Of a DNA stretch of 64,000 nt, positions 17,901 through 60,974 are shown piece by piece (position 1 is the first letter of the stretch; every line of letters starts with the position of its first letter). The stretch comes from Callorhinchus milii (taxonomy: Eukaryota). The stretch spans positions 128,590,001 to 128,654,000 of the forward strand of contig NW_024704742.1 in the NCBI RefSeq assembly GCF_018977255.1, in the 5' to 3' direction. Below the pieces are notes generated by a model. That model made no database searches. It saw nothing but the letters and a program-made list of their open reading frames with translations, and was not told the DNA's origin. Both the position numbers and the translations under genes were made by a program.

Positions 17901-18330
17901 GGATTTGGAGTCGTGGCAGAGAAATGACCGTGGAGTTTGAGGAGCAAGGAGTTTTGGTGAGGGTATGGCTGAGGGAGGGGGAAGGGGTGTTTGCCTTTCG
18001 GAGGCGGTTGCTGCGGAGAGAGTGAGCGATGGGACAGTTGAGGTTGCTGCTCTGGGACAACCAGCGCTGGTAGCCATGATGGGCCCGGTGGAGGATGCCC
18101 AGGTTGGAGCAGAGAGAGGTAATGTTGGGGTCAAGGAGAGAGGGAGAAGGTGAGGAGAGTGGTGGGAGAGAAGGACAGAATGGTAGTAGTGGTTAGAGGG
18201 GAGTAGGAGGAGGAGCATTTCCAGGGGAAGCGACTCGGGTGTTTCCAGCATACAAAATGCGCACGTAGAAACCGGGAGCGAGCGATCAGCGGGTCAGCAT
18301 CAGCCCGCGGGCTGTAGGACACAGCACAGG
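14918..18330 (-). mobile_element. Long decayed L2-clade LINE with APE endonuclease and RT remnants
   Basis: Frameshifted ORF2 pieces: LQNVRSLFNKALIIHDLILDEHMDILGLMETWL (EN), [35 protein letters not shown] (RT); (CAA)n tail near 14920. Interrupted by a + strand SINE tail 17255-17394 flanked by AAATCT (17249-17254, 17395-17400). 5' boundary approximate. Confidence 0.93.
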
Positions 18331-28088: not shown

Positions 28089-28161
28089 ATGAAAGACACA
28101 GTTGGAAAGCGTTTGGTTTACTTCACTGGTAATATGAAAGAGTTTGGGAAATGGATTCAAG
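28089..28161 (+). CDS. slc14a: Urea transporter coding exon 1 ([24 protein letters not shown]); start codon uncertain
   Basis: [12 protein letters not shown] resembles the UT N-terminal YxTGDMKE motif. Donor CAAG|GTAAGA, phase 1, matches the next exon. In-frame TGA at 28068-28070 lies upstream of the ATG. Confidence 0.85.
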
Positions 28162-31100: not shown

Positions 31101-34100
31101 AGCCCATGTCCCCTTGTGCTGCCTGACACTATCTGGCAATACAGAGAACATTTGCTTGCCAGTCCCGCTGACAGTGAGGAAATGAATATCCTGAGCAGGA
31201 TGTTCGGGCCAGGTTGCAAGACATGAAACATCTTACTTGTGGATCCCCACGAAATGACAATTCAACACTGTGCTGGAGTCCTGTTACCCCTGACAACAGA
31301 ACAAGCTATATCTGAGCTCAGCCAGGTTTCTGCTTTAATTGTTGCTGGATGATTAAGGTTAACCTCTACCTGACCCTATAATAATAATAATAATAATAAT
31401 CCTTGCATTTGATATAGCGCTTTTCACGTCAGGAGGACGTCCCAAAGCGCTTCACAGAACACACTGTAAAGTGAATTGACTGTATATTTGTGGGCGAACG
31501 CGGCAGCCAATTGCGCACAGCAATGTCCCACAAACAGTCGTAGATTGAAAATGACCAATTTAATTATTGTTTTGGGTTTTTTGGAGGGATTATTATTAGG
31601 CTCTGTGTGGAGTAAGGAAACTTGCCCAAGGTTTCGCCCTGCCTGGAATTGAACTCAGATCTCTCACTTGCAAAGCGAGTGCTCTAACCACTGAGCTACA
31701 GGACTCCTAGGACCCTATCACCACCTAATATTTAAAAAATCGGGCGTTGGGTCAATACTTTCACTCCCTACAGCCATCTTTAGAGGTGCGGAAATAAATT
31801 TTACTGACAGAAGACATGGTCACTAAATAGTATCGACTCAACTCAATACCGTCCAGTAACTTCACTCCAGGTTAGTTATCCAAAGAAATTTAAAAGGAGT
31901 CTAGATTTACTCTGTGTAATATTGTAGAGTGCCCAGAATTGAGTAAAGTGTTGAATTCAGCCTTAACTTTGAAATCATTTTTCTACAGTTCAAATAAACT
32001 TACGGCTTCAAAATTGAGGCTGTGTTCAACATTTGCAAAATTCTCGACAACAACAAATCACATTTGTATAGAGTCTTTCACGTTGGGAGGATGTCCCAAG
32101 GCACTGGACAGTTGGGAAATTGGACTTGAGCTGGGGGTTGGGATCAGGAAGGGTGAAGGGCAGGGAGAGTACGGGTAGGAGGGTGACTGAAGGCAAGGTC
32201 GAAGAGGAGGGTCTTGAGATGTGCCTTGAGGGAGCGAGGGGCAGGGACTGTAGGATGGAGTTCCAAAGGGTGGGAGCGGAAAGGCTGAAGGCCCAATTGC
32301 CGATGGTGTCAACACTCTAAAATGCTACAAAAATAGAATAAATCTAGACACTGATAGAATTTCTCCCCAGTTGCTGCGTATTTCCTTTGATGTATTGCCA
32401 TAATGCACTACCTATACCAAATGACAATCACTCTGATCTCCCTGTGTTTGGTTATATTTCAGCTCAGCCTTTTGGCGTGCAGCTTCTCGAATGGAATCTA
32501 CGTGGTGTTTCCCAGGTGATTTTTGTCAATAACCCACTCAGTGGGATGACAATATTAATGGCTCTCATTCTGCAAAGTCCTTGGGTTGCACTGACAGGAG
32601 CTGTGGGACTGCTGACTTCAACACTCACGTCTCTGATATTGTCACAAGACAGGTACGCAGACAGCAAACACAGTGCAACGTTTAATACATTAGAGAGTCA
32701 TTCAATCTCGCAAGGAGCGAGCATGTCTTTTTATTCAAATGCTTCTGCGAGCGACCATAATTTGCATTTTCACATTTATATTGAAGCTGTCAGTTTGGCT
32801 CAGCCGGTAGCATTCTTGCATCTTGGTTGAGGTCTGTGTGAGTACAAGACTCACACCAGGGTTTAGGATCCTAGAACACATAAATTGCAACACCTATTCC
32901 AGTCTGACACTTCAGATAGTCCTGCTCTGACGGAGTGTCTACCATTGAATGAGTTGTGGAACTGAGGTCTTTTCAGGGGGACAACAGAGATCCTTTGGAC
33001 CATTTGTTCTCCTGCTTCCAGAATTCCAATGTTTGTCTTCCCATTACAACAGTGTCCTGGCCAACAATCCCCCAGATAAATATTGGTCTTTCACTTCACA
33101 ACTGTTTCTGAGACATTGCAGTGTGCAAATCGGCTACTACTTTTGCCTACAAAACACACAATCACTACACTCTCCAATAAATCCTGTGAGGCACTTTGAG
33201 ACATTTTGATTATGTGATGAAATGCTATTTCAAATGCAAGGAATATTAATATTAAATGAGTCCAGAGACTTAACCTCAACAATCCTTATTGGCACCCATT
33301 CCAACAACAACAACAACAACAATAACAATTTGGATTTATATAGCGTCCTCCACGCTGGACGGAGTCTCAGAGCGCTTTATTCCAGCTGTTGATTAACCTC
33401 GGTATAAATAAATATTTCCCGGTGTCTGTCCTAAATTTGCTCTTCACAACCATAAACTCTTTTCCTGGTCTATCTGATAGTATTATCCTGGGATTATTTG
33501 TTAATCTCATTCAACATTTTATGAGCTGTATTAAAAGCTGTTTATTAATGATTGGCCTGCAAATCTGAGAGGGTGACTATAGAAATTACATAGTGCTTTG
33601 TTCATTTGGGCAAGTGAGGGGGTGAAGGACCAGCGAGACCTGGGGGTTGAAGGTGGCAGGACAGGTAGATAAAGCTGTTAAAAATCCATATGGGATACAA
33701 AGCTTCATAAATAGGAGCATAGAATACAAAAGTCAGGAAGTTATGATGAACCTTTATACAACACTGGTTAGATCTCGGCTAGAGACTGTGTTCAGTTCTG
33801 GGCACCACACTTCAGGAAGGATGGCAAGGCATTGGAGAGGGTGCAAAGGAGATTTACCAGGATGGTACCAGGAATGAGGGACATCAGTTATCAGGAGAGG
33901 CTAGAGAAGCTAGGATTATTCTCCTTGGAGCAGAGAAGGTTAAGAGGAGACTTAATGGAAGTCTCAAAATTAAAGTTTTAAAAATTATGAGGGGATTCGA
34001 TAGGGTGAACAAGGAGAAAGTATTTCCACTGATGGGTGGGTCGGTAACCCAAGGACACCGATTTAAAATAGTTGTTAAAAGAAACAGAGGAGAGGTGAGG

Positions 34101-43100: not shown

Positions 43101-46100
43101 AGCCTGGTTAGGCCGCTGCTCAAGGTGAAAGAGGAGGGCCTGTAGGCCGTCCTTGTGGGGGATGGAGGTGCAGAGGGACTGAATGTCCATTGTGAATAAG
43201 AGACGGTCAGGGCCTGGGAACTGGAAATTGTTGAAGTGGCGGAGGGCGTCAGAAGAGTCACGGATGTAAGTAGGTAGGGCATGGACAAGAGGAGCAAAAA
43301 TGAAATCCAAATATGAGGAGACCAGTTTGGTGGGGCAGGAACAGGCTGAAACAATACATAGTCCATAAGACCATAAGATGTAGGAGTAGGAGTAGGCCAT
43401 TCGGCCCCTCGAGCCTGCCCCGCCATTCAATAAGATCATGGCTGATCTTCTAACCTAATTCCAATTACCCGCCCTATCCCCATATCCCTTAATCCCTCTA
43501 TCCTTTAGAAATCTATCAACCTCAGTCTTGAATAAGTTCAAGGACTGAGCATCCACAGCCTTCTGGGGTAGAGAATTCCACAAATTCACTACCCTCTGAG
43601 TGAAGAAATGTTTCCTCAACTCAGTTCGAAAAGGCTGACCCTTAATCTTGTGACTATGACCCCTAGTTTTAGATTCTCCAACCAGGGGAAACAGTTTCAC
43701 GGCATCTACCCTGTCAAGACCCTTAAGAATCTTATAGGTTTCTATAAGATCACCTCTAATTCTTCTATATTCTGGAGAATATAGGCCTAGTTTACTCAAC
43801 CTATCCTCATAGGTCAACCCCCTCATCCCAGGAACCAACCTAGTGAATCTATGCTGCACCACCTCTAAGCCGAGTATGTCCTTTCCTAAATAAGGAGATC
43901 AAAACTGCACACAATATTCTAGGAGTGGTCTAACCAAGGCCTTATACAACTGCAGCAAAACTTCCCTACTCTTGTACTCTAACCCTTTTGCAACGAACGC
44001 CAACAAGGCATTAGCCTTCCTAATTGCTTGTTGTACCTGCATACTAACTTTTTGTGACTGGTGTACAAGGTCACCCGAATCCCTCTGAACACTAACCCTA
44101 CCTAGTCTCTCCCCTCTAGAAAATAATCCCCTTTTCTATTTTTACTACATAGGTGAATAACTTCACACTTCCCCACGTTATAATCCATCTGCCACCTTCT
44201 TGCCCATTCACCTCGCCTGTCTATTTCCCTTTGCATTCTTCGTGTGTCATCCTCACAGCTTACTCTCCCACCTATCTTCGTATCATCCGTGAATTTAGAT
44301 ATGTTAAATTCTATTTCCTCATCTAAGTCATTGATATAAACTGTAAATAATTGAGGTCCAAGCACTGATCCTTGTGGCACTCCACTAGTCACAACCTGCC
44401 AATCTGAGAAAGACCCGTTTATCCCCACTCTGTTTTCTTCCTATTAGCCACTCTCCAATCCATGCTAATATATTACCTTTAATTCCATGGGTTCTAATCT
44501 TATGCAACAGCTTTTTATGTGGCACCTCGTTGAATGCCTCCTGGAAATCCAAATACACCACATCTACTGGTTCCCCCCTATCTAACCTGCTAGTTACATC
44601 CTCCAAAAACTCTATAAGATTTGTTAAGAATGATTTCCCTTTCGTAAAGCCTTGTTGACTCTGTCTAATCATGCTATGAATTTCTAACTACCCCACGACG
44701 ATGTCCCTAATTAAGGACTCTAGAATTTTCCCTATCACCGATGTTAGACTAACTGGTCTATAGTTACTCATTTTTTGTCGCCCACCCTTCTTAAATATTG
44801 GCGTTAAGTTTGCGACCTTCCAATCAATGGGAACCGTTCCAGAATCCAAGGAATTTTGAAAGATCATAAACAAAGCATCCACTATCTCTGCAGCCACCTC
44901 TTTTAAAACCCTAGGATGTAGGCCATCAGGTCCAGAGGATTTATTGGTTTTTAATTCTGTCAATTTCTCTAGTACTATTGCTTTACTGATGTTCATTTCT
45001 TTAAGTTCCTCACCAACATTAACCTCCAGGATCCCCTCTATTTTTGGTAAGTTCTCAGTGTCCTCTAACGTGAGGACAGACAACAACAACAACAACAACA
45101 AGATTCCATTTATTGAGTGCCTTTCACGTCGGGAGGACGTCCCAAGGCGCTGTACAGTTGGGTCAGGACCCGAGCAAGGGGGAAATGGTCAGGGTGAGGG
45201 GAGGGAAGGGAGGGAGCGAGGAGGGGGTAGAGAGTCGAGAAGGGAGCTGAAGGCACGGTCAAAGAGAAAGGTCTTGAGACTGTCCTTGAAGGAGGAAAGG
45301 GAGGAGGCGGCGAAGGCACTGGGGGATAGAGTTCCAGAGCCTAGGGGCTGAGAGGCTGAAGGCCCGGCCACCGATGGTAGGGCGGTTGGGGTGGGGGATG
45401 TGGAGCAGACCGGAGCCAGAGGAACGGAGGGTACGGGCAGGTAGGTAGGGGATAGTAGGTCGGAGAGGTAGGAGGGAGCAAGGCCGTGAATGGCCTTGTA
45501 GGTGAGGGTGAGGATCTTGAATTCGATCCTCTGGGGGATGGGGAGCCAGTGGAGGCGAGCGAGGGTGGGAGTAATGTGGTCGCGAAGCCTGGTGCGGGAC
45601 AGTACACGAGCTGCAGAGTTCTGAATGACCTGCAGCTTGTGGAGGGAGGTGCCGGGAAGGCCGGCGAGGAGAGAGTTCCCATAGTCCAGCCTTGAGGTGA
45701 TAAAGGCGTGGACCAGAGTTTCAGCAGCGTGAGGGGTGAGGTAGTGCCGTAGTCTGGCGACATTCCGGAGGTGATGGAAGGCGGTGCCAGTTGTGGCGCG
45801 GATATGAGGGAGAAAGGACAGCTCAGGGTCGAACAGAACCCCGAGGTTCCTGACTGCCTTTGAGAGGTGGAGAGTGCAGCCTTGGATGCTGATGCTGTCA
45901 GCGCCTGAGGTGTGGAGGCGCTGACGTGAGCCAATCAGGAGGGCCTCAGTTTTGCGCACGTTGAGCTGGAGAAAGTTATCTCTCGTCCAGGACTCGATGT
46001 CGGACAGGCAGACTGTCAGGACATCGGTGGTCGTGGAGTTGAGGGTAGAGGAGGAAAGGTAGAGTTGGGTGTCATCCACATACATGTGGAAGTTAACCCC

Positions 46101-49100
46101 ATGTCTGCGGATGATGTCACCAAGGGGGAGCATATAGAGGGTGAAGAGGAGGGGACCGAGGACAGAGCCTTGAGGGACACCGCACGAGACAGTGCGGGGG
46201 CCGGAGGAAAAACCATTTGTGGAGACAAAGTGAAGACGGTGGGAGAGGTACGACCTAAACCACTCAAGGACAGGGCCTTGAAGGTTTAGGTGGGAGGACA
46301 AGCAGTGGAGGAGGATAGCATGGTCGACCGTATCGAATGCTGCCGATAGGTCGAGGAGGACGAGGAGGCAGAGGGAGCCCTGGTCACAGATGGTCAGGAT
46401 GTCATTGGTGACCTTGACCAGGGCAGTTTCTGTGCTATGGGCAGCACGGAAACCCGATTGAAGGGGTTCGAATAGTGAATGGTTGGAAAGGACAGAAGCA
46501 AAATAATTGTTTAATGACTCTGCCATTTCATTATTCCCTTTTATAATTTCTCCTGTCTCTGCCTACAATGGACCCACATTCACTTTTGATAGTCTCTTCC
46601 TCTTTATGTACTTGTAAAAACTCTTAAGATCTGTCTTTAGTTCTTAGCTAGTTTACTCTCATATTCCATTTTCTCCCTCTTAATCAGTTTCTCAGTTTTC
46701 CTATGCTGATCTCTAAAGCCCTCTCAATCCTCAGGTTTACTGCTCTTTTTGGCAGTGCTATAGGCCTCTTCTTTTAATTTTATACTTTTCCTAACTTCTC
46801 TAGTTAGTCAAGGTTGAACCACTTTCCCATGGTATTTTTATTTTTCAAGGGAATATGTGATCACTGGGAAATATGTAATATATCTTTAAACACTTGTCAT
46901 TGCTGATCTAACGTCATATTTTTTAATCTAATTTCCCAGTCTATGTTAGCCAAATCTTCTCTCATACCGGCTTTATTTAGATTTAAGACCTTTGCTTCGG
47001 ATTCAACTATATCACTCTCTAAGTTAATGTTAAATTCCATCTTAAGAATACAAGAACATAAGAATTAGGAGCAGGAATAGGCCATTCGGCCCCTCGAGCC
47101 TGCCCCGCCATTCGATAAGATCATGGCTGATCTTCAGACCTAACTCTAATTACCTGCCCTGTCCCCATATCCCCTAATCCCTCTATTTTTAAAAAATCTA
47201 TCAATCTCAGCCTTGAAGATGTTCTTACCTTCTGGGGTAGTGAATTCCATAAATTCACTACCCTCTGAGTCAAGAAATGTTTCCTCAACTCTGTTCTAAA
47301 AGACGGCTCTGGCCTGCTCCACGTCCCCTGTCCTACCCGCCCCACCATTGGCGGGAGAGCCTTCAGCCACTCTGTCCCCGACCTCTGGAATTCCATTCCC
47401 CAGTCACTCTGCTTCACCCCCTCCTTAGCCTTCTTCAAGTCCCGCCTCAAAACCCTCCTCTTCGACCATGCCATCAGCCATCCCCCTTCCCCTCCCCTCC
47501 CTTCTCCCCCTCCGACCCCAGCTCGGGTCTGAAACGCTGTACTCTGTCCATCACCTTGGGACGTCCTCCCGACGTGAAGGCGCTATACAAATGTAATGTT
47601 ATTGTTGTTGTTTGCCAATTTTCCATATGAAAACTGAAATCACCCATTATTATTGTATTCTCCTTGCTACACGCTTCACCTGCCAGGAACAAGGGTTGAG
47701 GCAGAATCCATATTGACTTTCAAAAGGGTACCAGATCAATATTTGAGAACAAGGATATGGGGAAAGAGCAGGAAAATGGGACTGAAAGGATTGCTCTTTA
47801 ACAGAACCAGCACAGACCCAATGAGACGAATTGGCCGCCTTCGTAAACTTCTGTGGTTCAATAGTAAGGTAGACTGATATATTCACGGGAGGAAAAAACA
47901 TTACATCAAATGCTTTAATGTAATGTTGTGTTTTGATGCCAGGCCAAAAAAAAACTTTACTCCACCGTGAATAATAAACCACTCTGATATCTTCAGGCTA
48001 AGGCAGCTGTGACGTATGCACTTCATATAACATATAACACTCCAGCTGGACACAAGTTAGCTTGTGATGGTCAGACGCTGCACCTGAAATCACCTGTAAT
48101 GTAATGAATATTACTGCCATTAAACCATAGCTTCAATTTGCACCAGTTCAGCCTTCCTTTGTTAGTTGCTTTATGACTCATTTATCTCATTTAATCTAGG
48201 TACCAGTAGCCTTGTTTGTTTTAAATTTGTTCTGGCAGTTTATATAAGGGAGCTTCTAAGCAAAATTACTTTCTAGCTCGATAAATTATCTTATCCTGCA
48301 GTGTTTCTGTAAAAAAACATTATTTTGTGGCTAAGATGTAATTTCTTGTGTGTTGAAACAATGGCTACGTGATGTGCTAATTATCACAAGTAATAACTAG
48401 CACATCATGTGTCGCATTTCCCTCCCCACCTCCCCAGAATTGTTTTTAAGCTTACATTCTTTCGGTAAATGTACACACTTGCTAGCTTTAATAATCCATT
48501 AAAAAGAATAATAATTTGGACACTCAATCTGACTGTTTGTAGAACACTGTTGTGTGCAATTGGCTGCCGCGTTTCGCCCACAAAATACACAGTCAATTCA
48601 CTTTACAGTATATTCTGTGAAGCGCTCTGAGACGTCTTGAAGACATGATAAGGCGCTATATAACAAATGTAAAGATAATCATTTATTATTATCATAACAC
48701 AGATGGATGTTTCTGACAATTTATCACTTGCAGGATTTTAATAATCTTCACCCAGCCAAGTAGATGTAGATTCACTTCCAGTGCTTATCCATTTTGATCT
48801 TGTTACACAGCGAGGACATCGCAGCAGGCCGCCACGGCTACAACGGGATGCTGGTTGGAATCCTGATAGCACTGTTCAGTGACAAAGGCGACTGGTATTG
48901 GTGGCTGCTGATACCTTCTTGTCTGATGGCCGCCTCATGGTATGTTATAAACATTACAACAACAAGCCGCCAATTACATTTCATGTCAGAAGGACGTGCC
49001 AAGGAGCTGAATAACAAACAGTTCAATGCAGAGTTATGTTTTGGGTGAAATTTGGCGTGCCATCTGGGTTGCCTGACACGCGTTAAAACTCATCGCTGTA

Positions 49101-52100
49101 GATTTCATCTTTCTATCTTTCTTTTAATCTTTCTGCTGCTCAGCACAAGTAGGTTGATCATAGGCTCAAGAGCGTAATAAAACTACAATCGTCTCTCGTT
49201 ATTAAGAGTCTGCAAGGCAGACTGAGAGTTCCACATATGAATGCCATCTTCAGCAGTCTTTCCTCTTCAACTGTACCTACGGTCACCTCCCCTTTCTCTC
49301 CAGCTCGGTGTTAAACATGCCATTGTTCAGTGCTCTGAGATGCTACCCAGTGTTGTTATATCAAATATAAGAATTCTTACAAATTTTGCAAATGGTTTAA
49401 CTTATGGAGTGTAGAATTTGTAAGTATTTCACAACAGGTATGACATGATAAGTATCATATGAAACGCCATTAATTTCACCCCTGTATTTCACTTCCAGCA
49501 CTTTCATCTTCAGTGGGTTAAAGTCACTCTTTGAACCGTGGGACCTGCCTGTCCTCGCTTTCCCCTTCAACACTATGCTGATCTTGTACTCAGGGGCCAC
49601 TGGCCGCAACAATCAACATTTCCCTCAAGTTCACATCGGGCCACAGACTACACCAACTAATGTCACAGCACCAGAGCTAAACGTACTCATGGTGAGTGAA
49701 AGATAAGAGCTAGTGGAGCTGAGCATTAGATAAAGAGCCCGCAAGTTCGCCAGAGTATCTGCTTTGACTGCAGAACAAGAAAGGTATCTTTCTGCTGCTG
49801 AACACTAGTAGATTGATCGTATGATCAATAGCATAATAAAGCTACAATTGTATCTAATGCGCAGCGTTTTAGGATAATAATATGATGCACCGCATACACT
49901 GCCCTGACCTCTAATATAATGAGCACTGTTTATTGCTCCCTCACTAAAGAGCAACAATATAAAATTGCTGCTTCTCTATAATGCATTGCTGTTTATCCCC
50001 AAAGACAGCCTGCTCAGGAGCATTCGGTTGAAATTTAGGCTGGCGTTTGGAATGGCTGCATTTGTGAACAGTGCAACAGTGCAGCTGAGGAAATAATGTA
50101 GAATTATTTTGTTGAAATATTGAATTACATTATTAGGAAGCAGGGATATGGTAAATGCCAACAGCCTGCTTATGATTCAGTATTGTATTTAGCGCTGAAA
50201 ATATAGGATTGCACTAGATTTAATTCGCACATTCTATTCCTGAAAAGGATATCCATAGTAACTTAAGTGGTGCAGGCTGCAATTTGTCAAAGCTGCTGTA
50301 TTCATTATATCGGTAATTTCATAGGCCCACAGTGGAACTGGCAAATAAATAAAAGATAATTGTTACTCAGTTCCCTGCAGATAATCTTTCCAACCAACTT
50401 TTGTTTAAACAAATCTATAATTTTGATCATACAACATCATAAAATTCATCTTAAAGACAATGATTTGCACCTACCTCCACTGCCTCCACGGCCCATGCTT
50501 TCCCATTTACCACTCTCCTGTCTTATCCGAATTTCTGCTTCAATGCCTTTGCTCCTAAATGCAGACGCCATAAATTTTGAAATTCACAGGGTCCAGATTT
50601 CGCTAAGCGTTGACCTGTAAATGTCAGCACTGAAATCCAGACAGTCCTTCAGAGCAATTTTATTTCCATTTATGAATCCATCATAATGTGATCATTTCCA
50701 CGAAATAATATCGGGACCAAAATGTGATGTTTCATAACAGATTTAGATTTGATGGGAAGGCACCATCTTTCTTCCAGTGGCCAGTGTAGTGATTTTGTAT
50801 CAGAAAGGAGGGCAGTTCACAGACGACCAGCTTAAACCAATTTAAGTTCAGACGATATATCATGAAGCAGCCCCTCAATCAGGCACAAAATGCCCCACGC
50901 CGTGTCTTGGAACTCACAATCCAAGTTGACATTCCAATGCAGTGCTGGGGATGTGCAGTGCAAGGTCTTCATGCCCCAGCACCTCCCTATTTCTCCGATC
51001 TCCTCAGACCCAACTCCCCCTACGCACAGTTAAAGGTGTTCCCCACCATCAGTGGCCAACTTCTGAAATTCTCTGCCTCTATCCTTCTATCTCGCCCCTT
51101 CTCTACTTCTACCTTTTCTTTTCAAAGAGCCAACACAGACATGATGGGCTGAATGGCCTCCTTCTGTGATGTATAATTCTATGATGTGCAAATCCACCTT
51201 AAAACCTTCCTCTTCGACCACGCATATGATCACCTCCCCCCTCCCTTTACTAGCTCAGTTTCCAATGTAAGAGGAAACTTGACACTTATGTGAGGGAGAA
51301 CGGAACAGAGGGTTATAGGAGATGGAAATGGAGGCTTGGGGTGGGGTGAGGCTGGGGGTATAAATACCAGTACTGACTAGTTGAATTGAATTGGCTGTTT
51401 CCGTGATGTGTCATTCCATGTAACTATGCTCTTGTCATTTGCCTGTTGGCTAGCCTGTGGGCTGTGAGCTACTCTCCAGAATGTTTCTATTTTCGGATAA
51501 CTTTTTTTTCGGATATCTTAAAAAGACCGAAACTTAAGAACTGTCGTCTTTTTTCAGTCTTTTCAAAACACAGTTTGATGACAGAGCACTGATGCCAAAA
51601 CTAAACATTTATGTGTTCCATTGGGATTCTGGCCAATAGATTTTTTTTTAGCAAATTAACACTGGAGGCACTTCACTCACCACTGCTTATGATTTAAATA
51701 GTCCCACCACCCCCTAACAGCTGGAAGACAAAGTCTTTCTATGAGCACTAAAGCAATTCAAACATTAATATTATTTGTGAATCTGCTAAAGAAAAAAAAG
51801 ACACATTCATCAGACGAGCATTAAACTACAAATGTGTCACATTTTTATGAGGCTCTTACTTCAATCATGTTACGACTATGTCTTTTTTTATTTTATTATG
51901 AATAAGTTATTAAGGATAAATTCTGTATGTGGTAGAAGAATTTAACACATGGTAATACTTGTAATATTTCAAGTACAAATAATAAACAATTCACAGTTCC
52001 CCATTTCTGGATAGTTAGCATAAGCAAACTGAACACTTTTCAGCTCATAATAGAAGTTAGCATTCCAGTGCATTGTTGGAGGTGCTGTCCTTCAGAGGAG

Positions 52101-55100
52101 GTTACTGTAAGTGCAGTCAAAGAAATAGGTCTTAATGTGGAATTTAAAGATAGATAAAGAGGGGGCAAAGCAGAGAATTGAACAGGGAAAACAGCCTATT
52201 AATGTCCACCTTATTGAATACTTTCATCATTTTAAGCATCTCTAAGGTCCCTCTCAATCATATTACACTCATGTTGCTTTGCAGATTAGCATCAAACCAA
52301 TTTATGATAAAATGTGAAATATTCAAACTAATGGATTAGAAACGCTGTTGGAGGCCAATGACTCTGTACTTATTTAATCACTTTCTAAAATTGAATCACT
52401 GAAATGTAATTTTGTTCCTCGTTGCAGCTTTTGAGGGCAATCCCAATTGGAGCAGGCCAAATCTATGGCTGTGATAACTTTTGGCCTTCTGTGATTATCT
52501 TAATGGCAGTTTTTCTATCATCTCCCATCCTTTGTGCACATGTTATCGTAGGCTCTGCAGTGGGTATTGCAGCAGGTAAGCCACGTTTTATTTCACACAT
52601 TCTGCAAGATATTTTGCCTTCCTCTTGGCAGAGGGGAAAAGGTTGAAATCTGAAAATGGTTAATGCCGACTTCAACATATGTTGATGTACAGTCAATTCA
52701 CTTTACAGTATATTCTGTGATATGCTTTGAGACATCTCAAAGATGTGATAAGGCACTATATCAATGGCAAGAATTATTATTATTGTATATCTGAACACGT
52801 TCACATTTTACTATTGTTTTTTACTTCTGTGCTTCCCATCGGTCATATCTGTTGTACCACAAATCTCAATATCTTTGTCTTTCAAATGCCTGTATGCAGA
52901 TAAACTCAGAAATAAGCTTTATATCCTACACAGCGTTCCTCCCCTCCTCTCCCCCCATCCTCTCCAGCACTTTATAAGCTGTTAGTGACTTTTGAGCTGA
53001 ATCTTTGTGTTAATTAGTACATCAGGGTGGACTCTAGGAACATTTTGTCTCAAAATTTAAGATCAGCTGCACAGAAAATGTGGAAGCTTCTTAAAACAAA
53101 TCTTAATTTGGAAGTCATTTACTGTAGTTCTTAAAAAAGTTTGTAAATTAAGATGGCATTTAAGAATTTTTCACAGTTCACAAAATGGCCTTGCACGCTA
53201 AGACTAGGTGGAATTTGGAGCCTTCGAAATCTTGTACTCTTCCTATGGCACTCACACCAGAGTCGGAAAGTGAATGTGCCTGTATCCACACATCACACTA
53301 AAATAACAATTCTTGCATGTGGGAGGTCGTCTCAAAGTGCTTCACAAGATTTATCGTAAAGTGTAGTGACTCTATTTTGGTGGCAACCAATTTGCCACCA
53401 TTTAGGTGGACAAATAGCAATGCACACACCACTTACAGCAACAGTGGAACTGACCATTCAATACAATGGTAACATCCATTGGCAGCGTGTACATTGCCGC
53501 AATTGAGTTTCCACCTGTTATCGACCAAGTCAGAATGAAATTTAAAAAAGGGCAAAATACTGCAGATGCTGGAAATCTGAAATAAAAAGAGAAGTCACTG
53601 GGAACACTCAGCAGGTCAGGCAGCATCAATGGAGAGAGAAAAGTGAGCTAACTTGACACTGATTTAAAATAATTGTTAAAAGAAACAAAGGGGAGGTGAG
53701 GAGAAATGTTTTCACACAGCGAGTTGTTTGGATCTGGAAAATATTGCCTGAAAGGGTGGTGGAAGCTGATTCGATAACAACTTTTAAAAGAGAGATAGAT
53801 AATTATTTGGGGTGGACAAGTCTTGGCTATGGGGAGAGAGTGAGATTGATTTGGATAGCTCTTTTCAAAGAGCCGGCACAAACTCAATGGGTCAAATGTC
53901 CTCCTTCTGTGCTGTATAAGTCTATGATTCTATGATTCTAAGCTATTGGCATGCAAGATATTTTGTTCCAGACGTTGCACATGAACTACTAGGTTAGAAA
54001 CCCCAAAAGACAGAGAGAAAACAGTGTGAAATCTACACAGACACAATAAAGAGAACAAGCTGTTGATATTCTGGACTATAATGCTTGCTTTTATCCCAGA
54101 GGGTTGTTGATACTGTCCATTCTCAATAGCAAAATATGTGGTTTTAGTTCCACCAGTATTCCAATGCATATTTTGGTGTCTCAAAGCCTTGGCAATTGCC
54201 AACCTATGCTTAATACTGTCTGGCACATGTTCCCTCTTGGTGACATCATCCGCAAAACATGTGGCCAACTTCCACATGTATGCGGATGACGCCCAACTCT
54301 ATCTCTCTGCTTCCACCCTTGACTCCAGGGCCACTGCTGTCCTAACAGAATGTCTGTCAGACATCAAGTCCTGGATGAGAGTGTGCGATCTTTAATGATA
54401 TCCTTTTATTTTCTCTTATTTTAGGATTGTCACTTGGAGTGCCCTTTGAACTACTCTACAATGGACTCGCTACCTTTAATGGTGTTCTGGCATGTATGAC
54501 TATTGGAGGCCTCTTCTATGTCCTAACTTGGCAGACTCATCTCCTCGCAATTGCATGTGGTGAGTACAGCATTTCTGTTCCTTGAATGATCAATAAGAAG
54601 CACCCATTTCAAAAATACAAAGTAGACGGATTTATATCTATATAACGCCTTCACATCAGGGGAACATCCTAAAGCGCTTCATTAGCATGTCAGTATGGCA
54701 CATTCTGATCATGGATGTAATAATGATGACCCTCTCTGTTACATTGTTAAAATGGTTGTGACAAAATGCCAGCTGTTGCTGGCCAGCAAACAATTATACT
54801 TTACCACTTGGTTCAGGGAACACTGGCTTAACTAAAGTTTACTTAATTTTCAAAGTCTAAAGTTGCACTAATGGGTTAAGGTTTGGTTTCAGGGGATTTT
54901 GATCTATTGGGCTATCCTCCTTGATGGAAAGTAAGCGAGGTCTCCCAATGGATAAGCAAAGCGAAGCTGGCCAGCCAGTGTTCATGATCGGAAGCTGAAC
55001 AGATTTAGCTGATCTATATCTCGTTCTGATGCTGATTAACCTGCAATACCTCCAACACATTCTAGAGTCCCCAAGCCTTGGCTGTAGCCAACTTCCACTT

Positions 55101-58100
55101 AAACATTTCTGGGATATGTGAGTTGGGTGCGTCAAACCCAGACAGAGAGTGCACACTCCATTCCAGATACGTGGAGATTTCCAAACATATGGGGAACCTC
55201 TGAGCAATTTGTTTGGATGATGTTAAACATTGTGATGGGTTTCCATGTGTATGACCTCTAGCTAATGAAAAAAAAGGTTAAAAAATATATAAAATTCAGC
55301 TTTAATAAGAAACCATTTTATACAGTTTAAAAAATACATGAGTATCCAAAATAAAAACAGGTCACGTTTGAAATGCACACCACGTTAATCAGTATCTGAA
55401 TGAGAAATCTAGAGCAACATTGTGAGTTTAACCATACATCAAAATTACACAACATCCTGTGCTTTTTTTTAAGATCATAATATATACAAAAGTTGCATAA
55501 GGATTAGATGGAGTCATCCCATTTGAAGCTTTAAGCCTGGATAAGCTAGAATCAGAGAAATTAATAATTGCCATATTATACTTTACTCCACTGAGGTAGT
55601 AGGGCTTAGTTGATATATACTTACAATGAGATTGGAATCTCTCCCCATTGCGCTGTTAAGCTTCAGATACAGACACTCTCAAGAAGCTGCAAATTCCCTT
55701 GCACACTCGGCTGCTGAGAATCAGGTGTATATTTATTCACTATTGGGTGAGATTGAAATAAATTTGGTGTAATTCCCTCCTGATGTACGGTTAAACTCGA
55801 AAAGTTGCCATGGATTTCTCATTCAGATACTGATTCATTTGGGGTGCATTTTCAGCACGTCCTGTTTTTTTTGACAAAGAAATTTCTCTTAATGCAACTA
55901 CCCTCTGTGGAAATGATTATTTTTCTATGACAAAGGCAGAAAACATGTCCAGTATGTATTCAATTACCAGTGAGTCCTATTTCAATTTTTAGCTGCTACA
56001 ACTGTAAAACCCCCAGTGATCATCTTAGTCTGTACTGTACTGGTGGTTTTTTCTTTTTATAATGAACCTCGAGTTCTTTTTTAATGCGATTTAGAAAGTG
56101 ATCCCTTAGTCCGGACATACTGTACTGCCTAATTTGTCTGAGAGAAAAAGCATTGCTCTTTAGGATTGTGCTAAACTTGAGACTGCCATAATGTTTCATT
56201 ACAACTGTGTTTCTCAGTTTAACAAGAGTAGGACCCTTCCTGTGGTCCCCTGCCACCGTACCGCTCACTTAGATTCTTCCCTGATCTTTGTAAAATACTC
56301 CAAGATGTTATCCTACATGAAGGGCACTATGTAAATGTAATTTGTTGTTGTTGTGCCTCTATCCCCTATAGCAGCGTTTTCCAATCAACCTGTCATCGAA
56401 GTGGTTCCAGGTCCATAGCCCATTAGCAGGTCAATACCAGAGATCCACTTAGACTGAGTGACATGACAGACTCATTTAGACCTTATAGAGTTGTAAACAT
56501 TCTTAATTGAGATTGAAAAAGTAAATCCAGAAAAATGCTTCACGATGCATCGAAACATAGGTTTAGAGTTGCAAAGGGCAATTTCAGGATAGATACCAGG
56601 AAGTTTTTCTTTATTGAAGTTGATATTGGATTCATTTAAAAAAAACAGCTAGATATTGTGATGGGAGGTCAAGGTGTTCGGGGGGAATGGGATCAAATAG
56701 ATCAAATGGCCTTCTTTATCGAAAGTAATCTTGTGATCTTGTGATTAATGGTCCACCACATTTTAAGAAGAAATTGAGGCAATCGCTGGTATCAGAAAGG
56801 TTAAGAATCTCTGTCCTATAGGATGCTTCTCATTCACCTGTATAGAGTCTATCCCATTCTGTGTGAAGGGTGCCACATAAATGCATGTTGTTGTAGAGTG
56901 CAAGTGATTTTTGTATCTGAGAAAGTAATGAGAGGTTGAGATATTGGCATTGATAGTCATTGTGTCAAATTGTGTAGCTTAAAATGCAAAATACTGCTTT
57001 GCTAATTGCAAGATGTGGGATTGGCCATCATAAAATGTGTAGGATCAGATTTTAATAAGGTTAACAAACAAAGTTTGGCATATAAACAGACAATCTGGTG
57101 ATGAATTCTTCCAGGAAACACACTTACATTGGTTGAAAGGTCTCTCAAATAGTCATAAAGAATGTTTGTTACAGATCGAGCATATTTCATTTATATTTTT
57201 TGCATTACTTTATTTCAATGTTACATATTTTAATTAGATCAGAAAAAGGAGATTGAAGATAAACAAAATTGCTTTGGTATCGTTGGTCACTGTGTTGTGG
57301 CTCACATAGCTTTTTGCATTTGATTTGGGCAATACAGTGGGGAGCCCTAAAATATTACAGTACAATTTACATGCAGCGCCTTTCACGGCGGGAGGACGTC
57401 TCAAAGTGCCTGCTGGACAGCAGCCGAGCTGGGGATGGAAACGACAGTCAACCCAACAATAAGCATGGTGATGGGTCTTTGCACGTGTTAGACACTCGGC
57501 TAACGAAAAGGAACAACCCAACAATATGAGAGTGTATATACCCAATTATGCAAATAACTTGACTGCTTGGGCTGGGAAAAGAAACAACAGCTTGCATTTA
57601 TAAAGCACCCTTCACACAGGTTAGCATCTCAGAGCGCTGTACAGCGGCAGCTTTGAACACCAAGCGGGGGAGAGGGGGAAGTGACTGTAGGCATGGTTGA
57701 AAAGGTAGATCTTCAGGTAGGATTTAAAGGTAGATAAATGGGGGATGGGATTGAGGCAGCGAGTTCCAGAGATTAAGAACATAGTAGCTGAAGGTACAAT
57801 CACCTATCGTGGAGCAGAGGGGTCGGGGGAAGTGCCTTGGGATGTCCTCCCGATGTGAAAGGCGCTTTGCAAATGTAATTTGTTGTTGTAGTTGAAGCAT
57901 AGCAGGATTGTGTCAGTTGAGTGAAAGGGGGCAACAAGTGGGTCTGATACAGGGAGCCACTGGAGAGGATTGGGGTGATGTGCTTGCAGAGATTAATGTT
58001 TGGGTTCTGCATCATAGTATCTAAACACATAAATTGTTTACGTTAGAAGGAAAATTTATTCCACATACTTTTTGTTGCAAAAATCACCCTCGGGAGTTTC

Positions 58101-60974
58101 TAAAGGTATAGTTTATCTTATGCATTTCATATCTATTATGAATCCAACATTAGCACGAATAATTTTATACAATATAACTGACATGGATGTTTTGGTGCAT
58201 GTTTGTGATTGTCAGTGTGAGGGGTGTTAGTGCTGGGAAATGGAACATTTCAAGCGCAATGTGTCAACGTTAAGTACTTTCATGTCAGCTGTAGCAGAGG
58301 TTAGATGCAGAATGAAGCTTCCTTTCTGCTGGGAGGTCTATGGAGACTCCTGTATCTGTGGCCTGACCAGGTCTGTTCATTATCAGCACATGCACTGTGG
58401 TCCTGAAAGTAACAATGCTGACAGCCCAGTTTTGCAGGCAGTTAAAGGGTAGAAAGCATAGAAGTTTATAGCCATTTGCCTAGTTTTCACACCAAGGGTT
58501 TCTTGGATGTGAAATGCCTTCCCAATTAAGGTGATAGAGTACTGTAGCGAAGTGGTTAGTGCTCTCCCCTCTCAAGCGAGAGGACTCAGGTTTGATTCCC
58601 AGGCAGGGCAAAACCTTAGGCAAGTTTCCTTACTCCACACACCTCTGTTTACCTAGCAGTAAGTAGGCACCCGGTTGTTAGTCGATTGGCGGATCGCTTT
58701 TCCGGGAGTAATAATTCCTTCAAAAAAAATTGGTCACTTCAATCCACAACTGTTTGTGCGTTTCACCCACTAAATACACAGTCAATCCATTTTACAATAT
58801 ATTCTGTGAAGCCCTTTGAGTCGCCTCAACATGATAAGGTGCAATATCAAAATGCAAGGATTATTATTATTTATTATTGAGGCATAGTTCATTGTAGGTT
58901 TCAAGTGGGAAGTAGACAAGTGTATGAAAGGTAGAGGCTTCAAGGAGTATGCGGATAAGGTAGGGCAGTGGGATTGAATGAGGATCAAACAGCAGACCAG
59001 AGTCGGAAGAGCAGAGGGTACGAGTTTGAGAAAAATACTGAAGGAGACTGCAAAGATAGAGTCATAATGGAGAGTATAATCATTTGAGTACATTAGTTAA
59101 ACAATGTGTGACTGAACCTGTTAATGTTTCCACAGCATTCTTCTCCTCTTATTCAGATCAAGCATTCCGAAATGTCTTGGCAATGGTAAGTAGAATTTAA
59201 TATTCATAATTTTAAAGGAAAAAAATGACTTACCTACTGAAGTCTGGTAAAATATCCATAATCTTCCCTTTGTCAGTAATAATTGAGTTAAAGCTTCAGA
59301 TACGTATTTCCATAGGATTCATTTTTATTGTTATTTAATTTAAATACATGCTTAATGGAAGGAAAAGATTTGCCATGAAAGAAAAAAAATTAAAGTTATT
59401 TTCTCAGTTAAAGCTGCAGTTTTTTATAACTCACTCTCTGGTGCTTTAAAAATCAGGCAGTAAATGTTGCCACCGTTTGAAATGCCAGTTTCTGTTATTC
59501 TCAGTGCATCATAAAACACATGATATTGCAGGAACATAGAAAAAACAGGAAAAGGAGGAGGCCGTTCAGCCCATTAAACCTGTTCCACAAGTTTATTAGA
59601 TCTTGTCAGTTTGTTTAATCCCAATGCTTCACCCTTTCACCACACTCTTTAATACCTCTTCTTCCCAAGTATCTCGATACCTCCACATTTTAAGTGTTAG
59701 CTTAGCTCAGTTGGCATCATTCTCAGCCTTGAGTCAGAAGATTGTGGGTTCAAGCTCATTGTTGGAGGTGCTGATAAACCAAGACAATAAAGGAAGATCT
59801 GCCTGTTCAAGTGGTAGATATTAAAGATCCCATGGAACTATTCAAAGGGAGTTTCTCTTGATGGCCTGGCCTACAAGCCCCAGTTAAAATTGGTTATTCC
59901 CTTCATGGCTAGTTGTGTGAGATTGATGTGTGAAAATTGGCTGTTGTGTTTGCCTATAATCAGTACATTTAACTGCAAAACCCTGTAAAGCACTTCAAGA
60001 TGTTTTCCCCATGCAAAAGACTCTATATCAAATGCAGGATTATTGTTAGTGGTATTGTTCTCTCTACTCTTGGTGTGAGGAAATGGTTTTTGACCTCAGT
60101 TCTAATATTAAACACATGGTCCATGTTAAAAATATCAATTACCGATGGAGACAGAACAACCTGTCCAAATTGTTACTAAGTCGGCAGGAATGATTTGATG
60201 TTAACAGAGTTGAAATTGGATATCTCCAGTAGAGAAGCCATTTTTAAAAAATATTTTTTGCATCTGACGAAGCATCTTATCATGTTGGCGAAATGTCTCA
60301 GAGTGTTTCAAACAGTTATGAAGCGAATGATCAATTTTATTTGGGTGATTGTTGACCAAGACTAGGAGAAACTCCCTTCTTTGGTCGAATAACGCCATGA
60401 GATCTGTAACATCCACTTGAACAGGGGAATGAGTGCTCAGTTTAATGTTTCATCTGAAGGACAGCAGTTCCATCAATGTTGTACAGCTCCAGCACTATAT
60501 TGGAGTGTCAGCCTGGTTAATGTAAGTTCAAAATCCTGTCCATGAATCCACAAACTTCTGACTCAGAACTCCATTACCAGCTGAGCTAGGCTGACGCCTT
60601 GACAAAAGCATCAATGATCTGAATGGCCTCCTTTCTGTATCTATGATCTATAGAGGTATGTCACACTCCTTTATGCGCAATATCTTGATGAATTTTAATT
60701 GTATTAAAAGCCTCACAAACACACTAAATAGCATTCTGTGAATATTAGTTCCACACTTTGAACAGTCACTGCTTGACCTTGTTTTGTTCATATTTAGGTT
60801 GGGTTACCTGCTGCTTCTTGGGCTTCTACCTTAACAATCACTTTATTTTTACTGGGGAAAAATAAACAACCGAAAATGTACAAACTGCCTATAAGTACGG
60901 TCTCGTACCCAGAAGAAAGCCGAAAATTGTATCTTCAATGGTCAAAGCCACAATCAAATGAGACAAATGTGTAG
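28089..60974 (+). CDS. slc14a: Urea transporter gene (SLC14A family, SLC14A1/SLC14A2-like; most similar to fish UT-C clade), 8 coding exons, about 364 aa
   Basis: Hand-spliced exons 28089-28161, 32463-32652, 48811-48939, 49499-49691, 52428-52575, 54425-54559, 59136-59185, 60798-60974 give one open frame of 1095 nt with GT-AG introns. UT motifs: [71 protein letters not shown]. Confidence 0.96.
31380..31707 (-). mobile_element. tRNA-derived SINE, short young subfamily, full length with target-site duplication
   Basis: Near-identical to 27532-27843 and 61539-61856; flanking GACCCTAT at 31372-31379 and 31711-31718. Confidence 0.94.
32047..32310 (-). mobile_element. L2 LINE 3' fragment
   Basis: (CAA)n tail and L2 3' end sequence. 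Confidence 0.85.
32463..32652 (+). CDS. slc14a: Urea transporter coding exon 2 (190 nt)
   Basis: Acceptor atatttcag|CT, donor ACAG|GTACGC; encodes (A)[62 protein letters not shown]. Confidence 0.96.
33620..35070 (+). mobile_element. CR1 3' fragment interrupted by L2 insertions
   Basis: [29 protein letters not shown]1 resumes after 34820 and matches the uninterrupted copy at 53665-53940. Confidence 0.9.
34118..34819 (-). mobile_element. L2 LINE 3' fragment nested in CR1
   Basis: [14 protein letters not shown]...[19 protein letters not shown]...LHWLP; ACACA on both flanks. Confidence 0.92.
36328..36675 (+). mobile_element. L2 fragment with large internal deletion (RT YxDD region joined to 3' end)
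   Basis: [12 protein letters not shown] directly followed by [11 protein letters not shown]...LKTFLF; (GTT)n tail. Confidence 0.85.
38263..38506. mobile_element. Palindromic MITE-like relic
   Basis: AGAATTGTGGAAAATTCTTAAA arm at 38330 pairs with TTTAAAAATTATTCCACAATTCT at about 38427-38449; GAGGC...GCCTC termini. Confidence 0.65.
39020..39710 (-). mobile_element. Two adjacent L2 3' fragments
   Basis: [10 protein letters not shown] and LHW-type remnants; (CAA)n tail. Confidence 0.85.
40925..41335 (-). mobile_element. L2 LINE 3' fragment (young family, as 45081-46488)
   Basis: [24 protein letters not shown]...RLWNSIP; (CAA)n tail. Confidence 0.92.
41373..43355 (-). mobile_element. Penelope-like retroelement (RT + GIY-YIG endonuclease), decayed, 5' part missing
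   Basis: [60 protein letters not shown]-terminal: [42 protein letters not shown]. Terminal repeat 41373-41480. Confidence 0.92.
41442..41478 (-). ncRNA. Minimal type I hammerhead ribozyme-like motif in the Penelope terminal repeat (probably degenerate)
   Basis: Minus strand AGTT-CTGATGA-agtgctgtggatcc-GAAA-CATT-GACT; AGTT/GACT can form stem I. Confidence 0.6.
43356..47040 (-). mobile_element. CR1 LINE ORF2 (RT) copy, frameshifted, split by an L2 insertion
   Basis: [67 protein letters not shown]; (CCATAAGA)n tail at 43363-43378. Confidence 0.95.
45081..46488 (-). mobile_element. Young 5'-truncated L2 LINE (RT through 3' tail) inserted in CR1
   Basis: About 340 uninterrupted L2 codons ([40 protein letters not shown]); AGGACAGA at 45073-45080 and 46489-46496. 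Confidence 0.96.
47042..47300 (-). mobile_element. Second CR1 3' end fragment
   Basis: Similar to 43365-43630 with a small deletion. Confidence 0.88.
47304..47613 (+). mobile_element. L2 3' fragment
   Basis: [22 protein letters not shown] frame; (GTT)n tail. Confidence 0.88.
48811..48939 (+). CDS. slc14a: Urea transporter coding exon 3 (129 nt)
   Basis: Acceptor tgttacacag|C, donor ATG|GTATGT; encodes (S)[42 protein letters not shown]. Confidence 0.96.
49499..49691 (+). CDS. slc14a: Urea transporter coding exon 4 (193 nt)
   Basis: Acceptor cacttccag|C, donor ATG|GTGAGT; encodes (C)[64 protein letters not shown], including an NVT sequon in the central loop. Not present in the supplied ORF track. 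Confidence 0.96.
52428..52575 (+). CDS. slc14a: Urea transporter coding exon 5 (148 nt)
   Basis: Acceptor cctcgttgcag|CTT, donor GCAG|GTAAGC; encodes [49 protein letters not shown]. Confidence 0.96.
53045..53222. mobile_element. Palindromic MITE-like relic
   Basis: Shares internal and terminal sequence (GCTAAGACT..G..GAATTT.G.GCC) with 38263-38506. Confidence 0.55.
53553..53650 (-). mobile_element. Penelope terminal repeat fragment
   Basis: AAAATACTGCAGATGCTGGAAATCTGAAA...CACTCAGCAGGTCAGGCAGCATC as at 8874 and 41373; ends before the hammerhead core. Confidence 0.78.
53665..53940 (+). mobile_element. CR1 3' end fragment
   Basis: [26 protein letters not shown]; (TCTATGAT)n tail. Confidence 0.9.
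54225..54385 (+). mobile_element. L2 RT internal fragment just upstream of UT exon 6
   Basis: PLGDIIRK and [14 protein letters not shown]...CLSDIKSWM. Confidence 0.88.
54425..54559 (+). CDS. slc14a: Urea transporter coding exon 6 (135 nt)
   Basis: Acceptor ctcttattttag|GA, donor TGTG|GTGAGT; encodes (G)[44 protein letters not shown]. Confidence 0.96.
55353..55870. mobile_element. Element with about 100-bp inverted arms (non-autonomous DNA transposon-like)
   Basis: Arms 55353-55450 and 55767-55870 with a perfect 23-bp core AATCAGTATCTGAATGAGAAATC (55387-55409) / GATTTCTCATTCAGATACTGATT (55813-55835). Confidence 0.75.
58540..58872 (+). mobile_element. tRNA-derived composite SINE, long form
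   Basis: Head, central block, partial Deu-like block, (ATT)n tail. Confidence 0.87.
59136..59185 (+). CDS. slc14a: Urea transporter coding exon 7 (50 nt)
   Basis: Acceptor gtttccacag|CA, donor ATG|GTAAGT; encodes (A)[16 protein letters not shown]; its phases bridge exons 6 and 8 exactly. Confidence 0.93.
59692..60050 (+). mobile_element. Old DeuSINE/SacSINE-like element
   Basis: TTAGCTCAGTTGG head, GGGTTCAAG box B, GTTCAAGTGG...AAAGATCCCATGG block, L2-like tail. Confidence 0.65.
60798..60974 (+). CDS. slc14a: Urea transporter terminal coding exon 8
   Basis: Acceptor catatttag|GTT; encodes [58 protein letters not shown] with stop TAG 60972-60974. Confidence 0.95.
   Translation, partial: VGLPAASWASTLTITLFLLGKNKQPKMYKLPISTVSYPEESRKLYLQWSKPQSNETNV

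Follow-up and report, generated by a model that had tools for sequence, protein, structure and literature searches.

Predicted one-sided remodelling of the pore filter in efUT-3, a UT-C urea transporter of Callorhinchus milii

A 64,000-nucleotide stretch of the Callorhinchus milii genome (G000:C1:128590001-128654000; hereafter the window) contains a urea transporter (UT) gene whose product is probably a passive urea channel of the UT-C type, in which the extracellular pocket and the hydroxyl of Ser313 would select the substrate and for which we predict a widening of the filter on its cytoplasmic side. The gene is not new: it is the already cloned gene for urea transporter gamma (BAH58777.1), which we take to be efUT-3 of Kakumura et al. 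2009, and the UT-C subfamily is also already known. Judged from the sequences compared here, the rewritten filter is real and clade-wide, but it sits in a known protein that probably still conducts urea.

Results and discussion

Gene structure and identity

The gene was rebuilt from eight coding exons, which together give 1095 nt encoding 364 amino acid residues and a stop codon, and all seven introns have GT..AG borders (Table 1). The first-pass annotation, made from the letters alone, had placed a urea transporter with two rewritten threonine signatures and an intact frame and splice sites at 49539..60830. The ATG (28089) lies far 5' of that span; the open frame and splice sites are indeed intact, and both signatures were found at the codons it had named. 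The first signature of 11 residues occupies 49539-49571 with Ala151 encoded by GCT (49557-49559), and the second, also of 11 residues, occupies 60798-60830 with Ser313 encoded by TCT (60816-60818) and the Ala315-Ser316 codons at 60822-60827. The proposed correspondence of Ala151 and Ser313 to bovine Thr172 and Thr334 was likewise upheld by a gapless alignment to bovine UT-B (4ezc; offset +21: A151=T172, S313=T334, S316=F337). The offsets are +25 to human UT-A2 (A151=T176, S313=T338, S316=F341) and +26 to human UT-B (A151=T177, S313=T339, S316=F342).

Table 1. Coding exons and signature codons of the UT gene (positions in the window)
Feature	Position	Strand	Remarks
Coding exon 1	28089..28161	+	ATG, residues 1-24; joint 28159/32461 GT..AG in run X2
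Coding exon 2	32463..32652	+	pore helix Pa: Gln42, Val43, Phe45 kept; X2 contig spans 32463-32652
Coding exon 3	48811..48939	+	Tyr98, Leu102, Leu106 kept; joint 48938/49498 in X1, X2, X3
Coding exon 4	49499..49691	+	first signature and long extracellular loop with sequon N185
Ala151-Phe152 codons	49557..49562	+	canonical Thr-Leu; bovine T172
Coding exon 5	52428..52575	+	pore helix Pb: Gln206, Ile207
Coding exon 6	54425..54559	+	Phe262, Leu266; joint 54558/59135 in X1, X2, X3
Coding exon 7	59136..59185	+	50 nt; splice joints on both sides
Coding exon 8 with stop	60798..60974	+	X2 contig continues to 61513
Ser313-Trp-Ala315-Ser316-Thr317	60816..60830	+	canonical Thr-Trp-Pro-Phe-Cys; bovine T334, F337

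The product matched the UT (SLC14) family PF03253 above the curated cut-off (304 bits, E 1e-90, model positions 2-291 of 292), and it is predicted to adopt the UT fold of ten helices and two pore helices. Its AlphaFold model (pLDDT 92.8) superposed on bovine UT-B (4ezc) with an rmsd of 0.8 Å, and on the ten top vertebrate UT chains with TM 0.93-0.96 and rmsd 0.7-1.1 Å, although the model was built from a UT alignment and the fold match depends on sequence likeness. Intron 2 (16 kb) carries a LINE-type element (window 42327-46562, - strand) that includes a reverse-transcriptase frame (Pfam RVT_1), and fragments resembling it lie at about 15000-18300 and 34100-34900.

The window protein is identical to BAH58777.1 ('urea transporter gamma', C. 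milii) at 362 of 364 residues and to NP_001279829.1 at 361 of 364. Three C. milii records differ from it by 2, 2 and 3 residues, all differences being conservative (V10I, T76S, I91V, V236I). A sequencing error or a private allele was rejected as the origin of the motifs, because the motifs recur in three further C. milii database entries. Among run contigs, two allelic differences were seen, 32615 A>T, giving the T76S change that the three database records share, and the silent 52544 T>C. The accession BAH58777.1 belongs to one series with the alpha and beta accessions and follows them. Passages of PMC5568229 and PMC11430647 list efUT-3 as one of three elephant fish UTs, an excerpt of PMC11145369 describes Ut-3 as 'similar to Ut-c', and the title of the efUT-3 paper gives a kidney origin. 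A search with exon 4 for longer proteins returned a single C. milii record among 30 candidates.

Splice joints were read from contigs of runs guessed to be RNA, and these contigs show presence only. The window gene was spliced in three of the five runs examined: the joints on the 3' side of exons 3 and 6 and the joint 59184/60797 (GT..AG) were found in X1, X2 and X3, while none of the three was among the contig matches listed for X8. Among X1-X4, the joint between exons 1 and 2 occurred in X2 only. At least four of the seven joints were therefore listed, and a fifth appears as a loose end at 48807 in an X2 contig, where the contig matches the end of exon 2; the joints of introns 4 and 5 were absent from the contig rows listed. 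The X4 contigs listed read through introns, which has no bearing on tissue or level. The part of the X2 contig beyond exon 8 is likely 3' UTR.

Phylogenetic position

A profile made from the window protein's record and a bowfin look-alike matched 828 proteins, of which the best 120 were listed, and one cluster among the matches contains the named eel UT-C, BAD66672.1. The first tree, a quick one of 52 rows including this eel sequence, was computed with the motif columns; because it included them, the trees were repeated after removal of 15 motif columns, with eel UT-C represented by its cluster mate P0133. The window protein was sister to ray-finned-fish UT-C in the 30-row unrooted tree (100/100) and in the 37-row tree rooted with distant UTs (100/99). 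Forced grouping with eight canonical cartilaginous-fish rows was rejected (p-AU 0.007). A scan of prokaryote genomes for an outgroup gave 54 pattern matches, none of them confirmed, and distant UT representatives served in their place. The ESM Atlas returned UT clusters only.

Pairwise identity does not separate the two groups (50% to UT-C and 51% to canonical UTs), and at 46 diagnostic columns the window protein agrees with UT-C at 19, with canonical UTs at 18 and with neither at 9. This even split fits an early-branching, slowly evolving UT-C member, and the assignment to UT-C rests on the trees, which contain long branches. The first-pass annotation had mentioned similar changes in teleost UT-C and suggested a clade trait rather than a private one. 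The trees without motif columns and the occurrence of the changes across 111 UT-C rows agree with that suggestion.

Proteins with the UT-C signature from elasmobranchs, coelacanth, lungfish, other lobe-finned fish or tetrapods were absent from the matches listed (best 120 per search), which included canonical UTs from 11 elasmobranch species. This hints that UT-C was lost in sharks and rays, lobe-finned fish and tetrapods.

A PF03253 search of the genome gave 19 exon matches at three gene loci. The window locus is on the + strand, and the two others, which match alpha and beta and have canonical motifs, are on the - strand about 1.1 Mb away. An exon of a RIT-type GTPase lies about 108 kb 5' of the ATG (L047:270-533, +), and PIK3C3 exons start about 23 kb 3' of the stop codon on the opposite strand (L032:211-465, L034:2726-2983, -); these flanks put the window gene in one block with the two other UTs. 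The human 18q12 order, which we take to be PIK3C3-RIT2-SYT4-SETBP1-SLC14A2-SLC14A1, makes the GTPase presumably RIT2 and not RIT1. From this order and the flanks of the window gene, UT-C likely arose by an old local duplication within the PIK3C3-RIT2-SLC14 block. In the efUT-1 (alpha) paralog (L020-L022; G000:C1, about 127,427,700-127,446,700), the middle and 3' exons are repeated in tandem, with two to three copies in blocks of 0.9-4.2 kb that are 97-99.8% identical; these repeats are either a recent duplication or an assembly artefact.

Residues lining the pore

PMC11589576 describes extracellular and cytoplasmic urea pockets together with a Q-T-T-Q relay and three residue pairs that make up a central region; according to the same source, T176A significantly impaired the urea flux of human UT-A2, and T338A impairs flux too. 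The constriction is given as V69, T177, L292 and F342 in an excerpt of PMC10541013. At the corresponding positions the outer pocket reads QIFSLFA in the window protein against QIFTLFC in human UT-B, the inner pocket reads QVFYLAS against QVFYFTF (RVLFSVA in eel and zebrafish UT-C), and the central pairs read ASLLFS against the canonical TTLLFF. The Q-T-T-Q motif has become Q-S-A-Q (Q206, S313, A151, Q42), which departs from the canonical filter; of the paired central phenylalanines (F179/F341 in human UT-A2), F154 is kept and the second is S316. At the constriction, smaller residues stand at two of the four positions. Summed residue volumes, taken as a rough proxy, fall from 1059 to 1035 Å3 (-24) in the outer pocket and from 1163 to 1012 Å3 (-151) in the inner pocket.

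The remodelling is one-sided, with a changed cytoplasmic pocket and a nearly canonical extracellular one, and the lost constriction phenylalanine is the largest change. The two threonine changes are unequal, Ser313 retaining a hydroxyl; it is the replacement of Phe by Ser or Ala that removes a residue assigned to the constriction in published structures. Phe152, in place of Leu, could refill part of the inner space. The remodelled filter proposed in the first-pass annotation is borne out at the residue level, the canonical T/T/F columns being changed to Ala151, Ser313 and Ser316.

These columns were surveyed in 234 listed proteins, own-gene records excluded, comprising 111 UT-C and 123 canonical rows. 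The search batch decided to which group a row was assigned. The rows are non-independent, since isoforms and related species are among them, and the profile used to retrieve the UT-C rows itself contains the motifs. At the column of human UT-B T177, all 123 canonical rows have Thr and UT-C has Val (109) or Ala (2). The T339 column is Thr in 123 of 123 canonical rows and Ser (108) or Thr (3, all bowfin isoforms) in UT-C, and the F342 column is Phe in 123 of 123 and Ala (97), Ser (12), Gly (1) or Val (1) in UT-C. Since the three columns read T, T and F in all 123 canonical vertebrate rows, the motif changes are not due to chance. Leu at L178 (123 canonical rows) is replaced by Phe (109) or Tyr (2), and the C343 column, Cys (121) or Asn (2) in canonical rows, is Thr in all 111 UT-C rows. 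The P341 column varies even among canonical rows (Pro 105, Ser 12, Ala 6).

In 109 UT-C rows the share of the commonest residue is 0.98 at position 151, 0.98 at 152, 0.99 at 313 and 1.0 at 317, against a column median of 0.91, and this high conservation fits selection on the new state. Position 316 holds a small residue, with an Ala share of 0.87 below the median, and its variability also fits mere loss of constraint on the phenylalanine. At the residue-42 column (exon 2; P0129-P0237), most teleost UT-C rows have Arg for the conserved Gln at the cytoplasmic pore mouth (86 of 111); bowfin, sturgeon and chimaera keep Gln, and the next Phe has become Leu or Met in most teleost UT-C. These changes are a second, later round of remodelling.

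The distant survey covered 92 representatives with less than 38% identity and at least 230 columns covered, from the best 150 of 1907 matches. The first site is Thr in 77 of them, the second is Thr in 68 and the third is Phe in 74; because these residues are the commonest at the three sites, the T/T/F state is likely ancestral. Among the 85 that could be scored, 60 keep T/T/F, 12 lack both threonines but keep Phe or Tyr, 8 lack Phe only, 4 lack the second Thr only and 1 lacks all three (N/A/L). UTs outside UT-C have therefore lost both threonines as well, and the UT-C filter combination was found in none of the 85. In P0329 (starfish Patiria), P0335 (nemertean Tubulanus) and the related P0339 and P0342, the threonines are replaced by Asn and then Ala and the aromatic residue is kept. 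The choanoflagellate-type group that includes P0360 has retained both threonines, has lost Phe and has His for Asn.

Proposed mechanism

The urea path proposed here follows the structures of human UT-A2 and UT-B. Urea would first bind in the outer pocket (Q206, I207, F262, S313, L106, F154), which is nearly canonical, and would then pass Ser313. On the inner side, aligned with human UT-A2, Thr176 is replaced by Ala151, Phe341 by Ser316 and Phe175 by Leu150. With the constriction phenylalanine gone, urea would face a smaller steric barrier, one that it normally crosses with the help of the missing hydroxyl; we propose that the threonine change is tolerated in efUT-3 for this reason, although T176A and T176V impair mammalian channels. 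In an inner half that is wider and less selective, the second hydroxyl would no longer be needed. More speculatively, Thr317, the putative pseudo-symmetry mate of the Asn181 that bonds Thr339 in human UT-B (this bond is reported in a passage of PMC3869693), might stand in for the lost hydroxyl, and Phe152 might repack the gap. Compensation for the lost first threonine is an assumption in this scheme, and the widening is predicted from residue volumes and from published structures of other transporters. The likely role of the protein would be renal urea handling alongside the canonical efUT-1 and efUT-2.

According to parts of PMC12171576, T172V, T176V and T246V abolished urea uptake in three mouse UTs, and Thr to Val at the first or the second site eliminated urea and water flux and weakened NH3 flux; the same source cites Geyer 2013 for a first-Thr to Val mutant of human UT-B that keeps urea flux and loses only water and NH3 flux. 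The reports on first-Thr mutants of mouse UTs and of human UT-B disagree. The oocyte work of Kakumura (2009) on efUT-3 and that of Mistry (2005) on eel UT-C are both said to have found phloretin-sensitive urea flux, and bovine UT-B T334S was reportedly active in the hands of Levin (2012). Given the oocyte fluxes reported for efUT-3 and eel UT-C, the window protein is unlikely to have lost urea transport or its sensitivity to phloretin.

Alternative explanations

A decaying or non-conducting copy would account for a substitution that impairs mammalian channels, but the open frame, canonical splice sites and spliced contigs, together with exclusively conservative allele differences and the conservation of the new residues throughout the clade, make it extremely improbable, and a pseudogene was rejected. 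The view of the first-pass annotation that the paralog is intact and not in decay is consistent with these observations, which add its expression. It is also very unlikely that the gene is a cartilaginous-fish-specific duplicate of efUT-1/2 that converged on UT-C residues. Its distance of 1.1 Mb from two canonical genes on the same contig and its best pairwise identity, 53% to efUT-1 among the matches listed, would suit such an origin; the trees without motif columns and the AU test led us to reject it, and five motif positions have shifted in the same direction in the window protein and UT-C.

The rebuilt inner half might instead have shifted the main cargo to another or larger neutral solute, such as methylated ureas, methylamines or boric acid, and urea transport would then be a remnant. 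The constriction Phe is lost in 111 of 111 UT-C rows, the inner pocket of ray-finned fish is altered further (Gln to Arg in 86, Phe to Leu or Met in 110 and Tyr to Phe in 99 of 111), the gene is retained in teleosts with low serum urea (0.4-3.7 mM in pufferfish, in an excerpt of PMC1351200), and a paper title seen in reference lists places UT-C in the proximal tubule of seawater eel. We nevertheless regard this shift as unlikely, since the outer urea pocket is nearly canonical, the chimaera protein retains Q42, F45 and Y98, and the literature matches listed for boric acid, urea transporter and oocyte concern aquaporins and include none on UT-C. Both cloned members, efUT-3 and eel UT-C, are moreover said to transport urea. 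A channel that conducts urea without water and ammonia, a natural equivalent of the first-Thr to Val mutant by which the kidney could move urea without water, is quite unlikely in our judgement. Val does occupy the first-Thr site in 109 of 111 UT-C rows, both threonines carry the water file in simulations (a passage of PMC3869693), and the mutant that PMC12171576, in part, cites from Geyer 2013 was impaired only in water and NH3 flux. However, the same mutation in mouse UTs removed urea as well as water flux, and UT-A2 T176V gave the same NH3 signals as the wild type (both from portions of PMC12171576, the latter from its discussion); a widened inner half would be more likely to let water through, and the chimaera has Ala, not Val. 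The broader idea that UT-C is an ancient jawed-vertebrate class whose one-sided filter serves a different solute spectrum (neutral molecules of larger size, or urea decoupled from water and ammonia), forming a natural suppressor set and an unrecognised renal pathway, seems to us doubtful. If it were true, UT-C would be a natural set of suppressors for mutations that cripple human UT-A and UT-B, and a renal pathway so far unrecognised in most bony fish and chimaeras.

Significance and comparison with known urea transporters

The Q-T-T-Q motif and the paired phenylalanines are presented as the common urea-channel mechanism in a passage of PMC11589576; UT-C, a whole fish subfamily that is structurally unsolved, breaks this rule at fixed positions. 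A description of the UT-C filter was not found among the matches listed in searches of the open literature; the primary UT-C papers lie outside it and may remark on the filter. The main text of PMC12998343, a 2026 study of UT evolution, contains neither 'threonine' nor 'selectivity'. Reciprocal swaps between efUT-3 and human UT-A2 offer a ready test of what the filter requires, and the UT-C filter may explain why fish have retained a second renal UT.

With regard to known systems, the window gene and efUT-3/UT gamma (BAH58777.1, NP_001279829.1) are the same gene with the same motifs, and their differences are allelic only. Mammalian UT-A2 and UT-B (8xd7, 4ezc, 6qd5), canonical fish UTs and efUT-1/efUT-2 share its fold and align without gaps at about 51% identity; compared with mammalian UT-A2/UT-B and canonical fish UTs, the window protein lacks the constriction Phe, although its outer pocket is nearly unchanged. 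In the distant non-vertebrate UTs the filter has also been rewritten naturally, but without the UT-C combination in any of the 85 scored. The sister clade, ray-finned-fish UT-C (eel BAD66672.1, bowfin, sturgeon, zebrafish and others), is about 50% identical to the window protein. Both have lost the first Thr and the Pro-Phe pair, and both show the changes Thr to Ser, Leu to Phe and Cys to Thr. In eel UT-C (BAD66672), the first site is occupied by Val and the second reads Ser..Ala-Ala-Thr. The two lineages differ at the first site, which is Val in 109 of 111 rows and Ala in chimaera, and most ray-finned-fish UT-C carry further changes at the inner-pocket Gln, Phe and Tyr, three residues that the chimaera retains.
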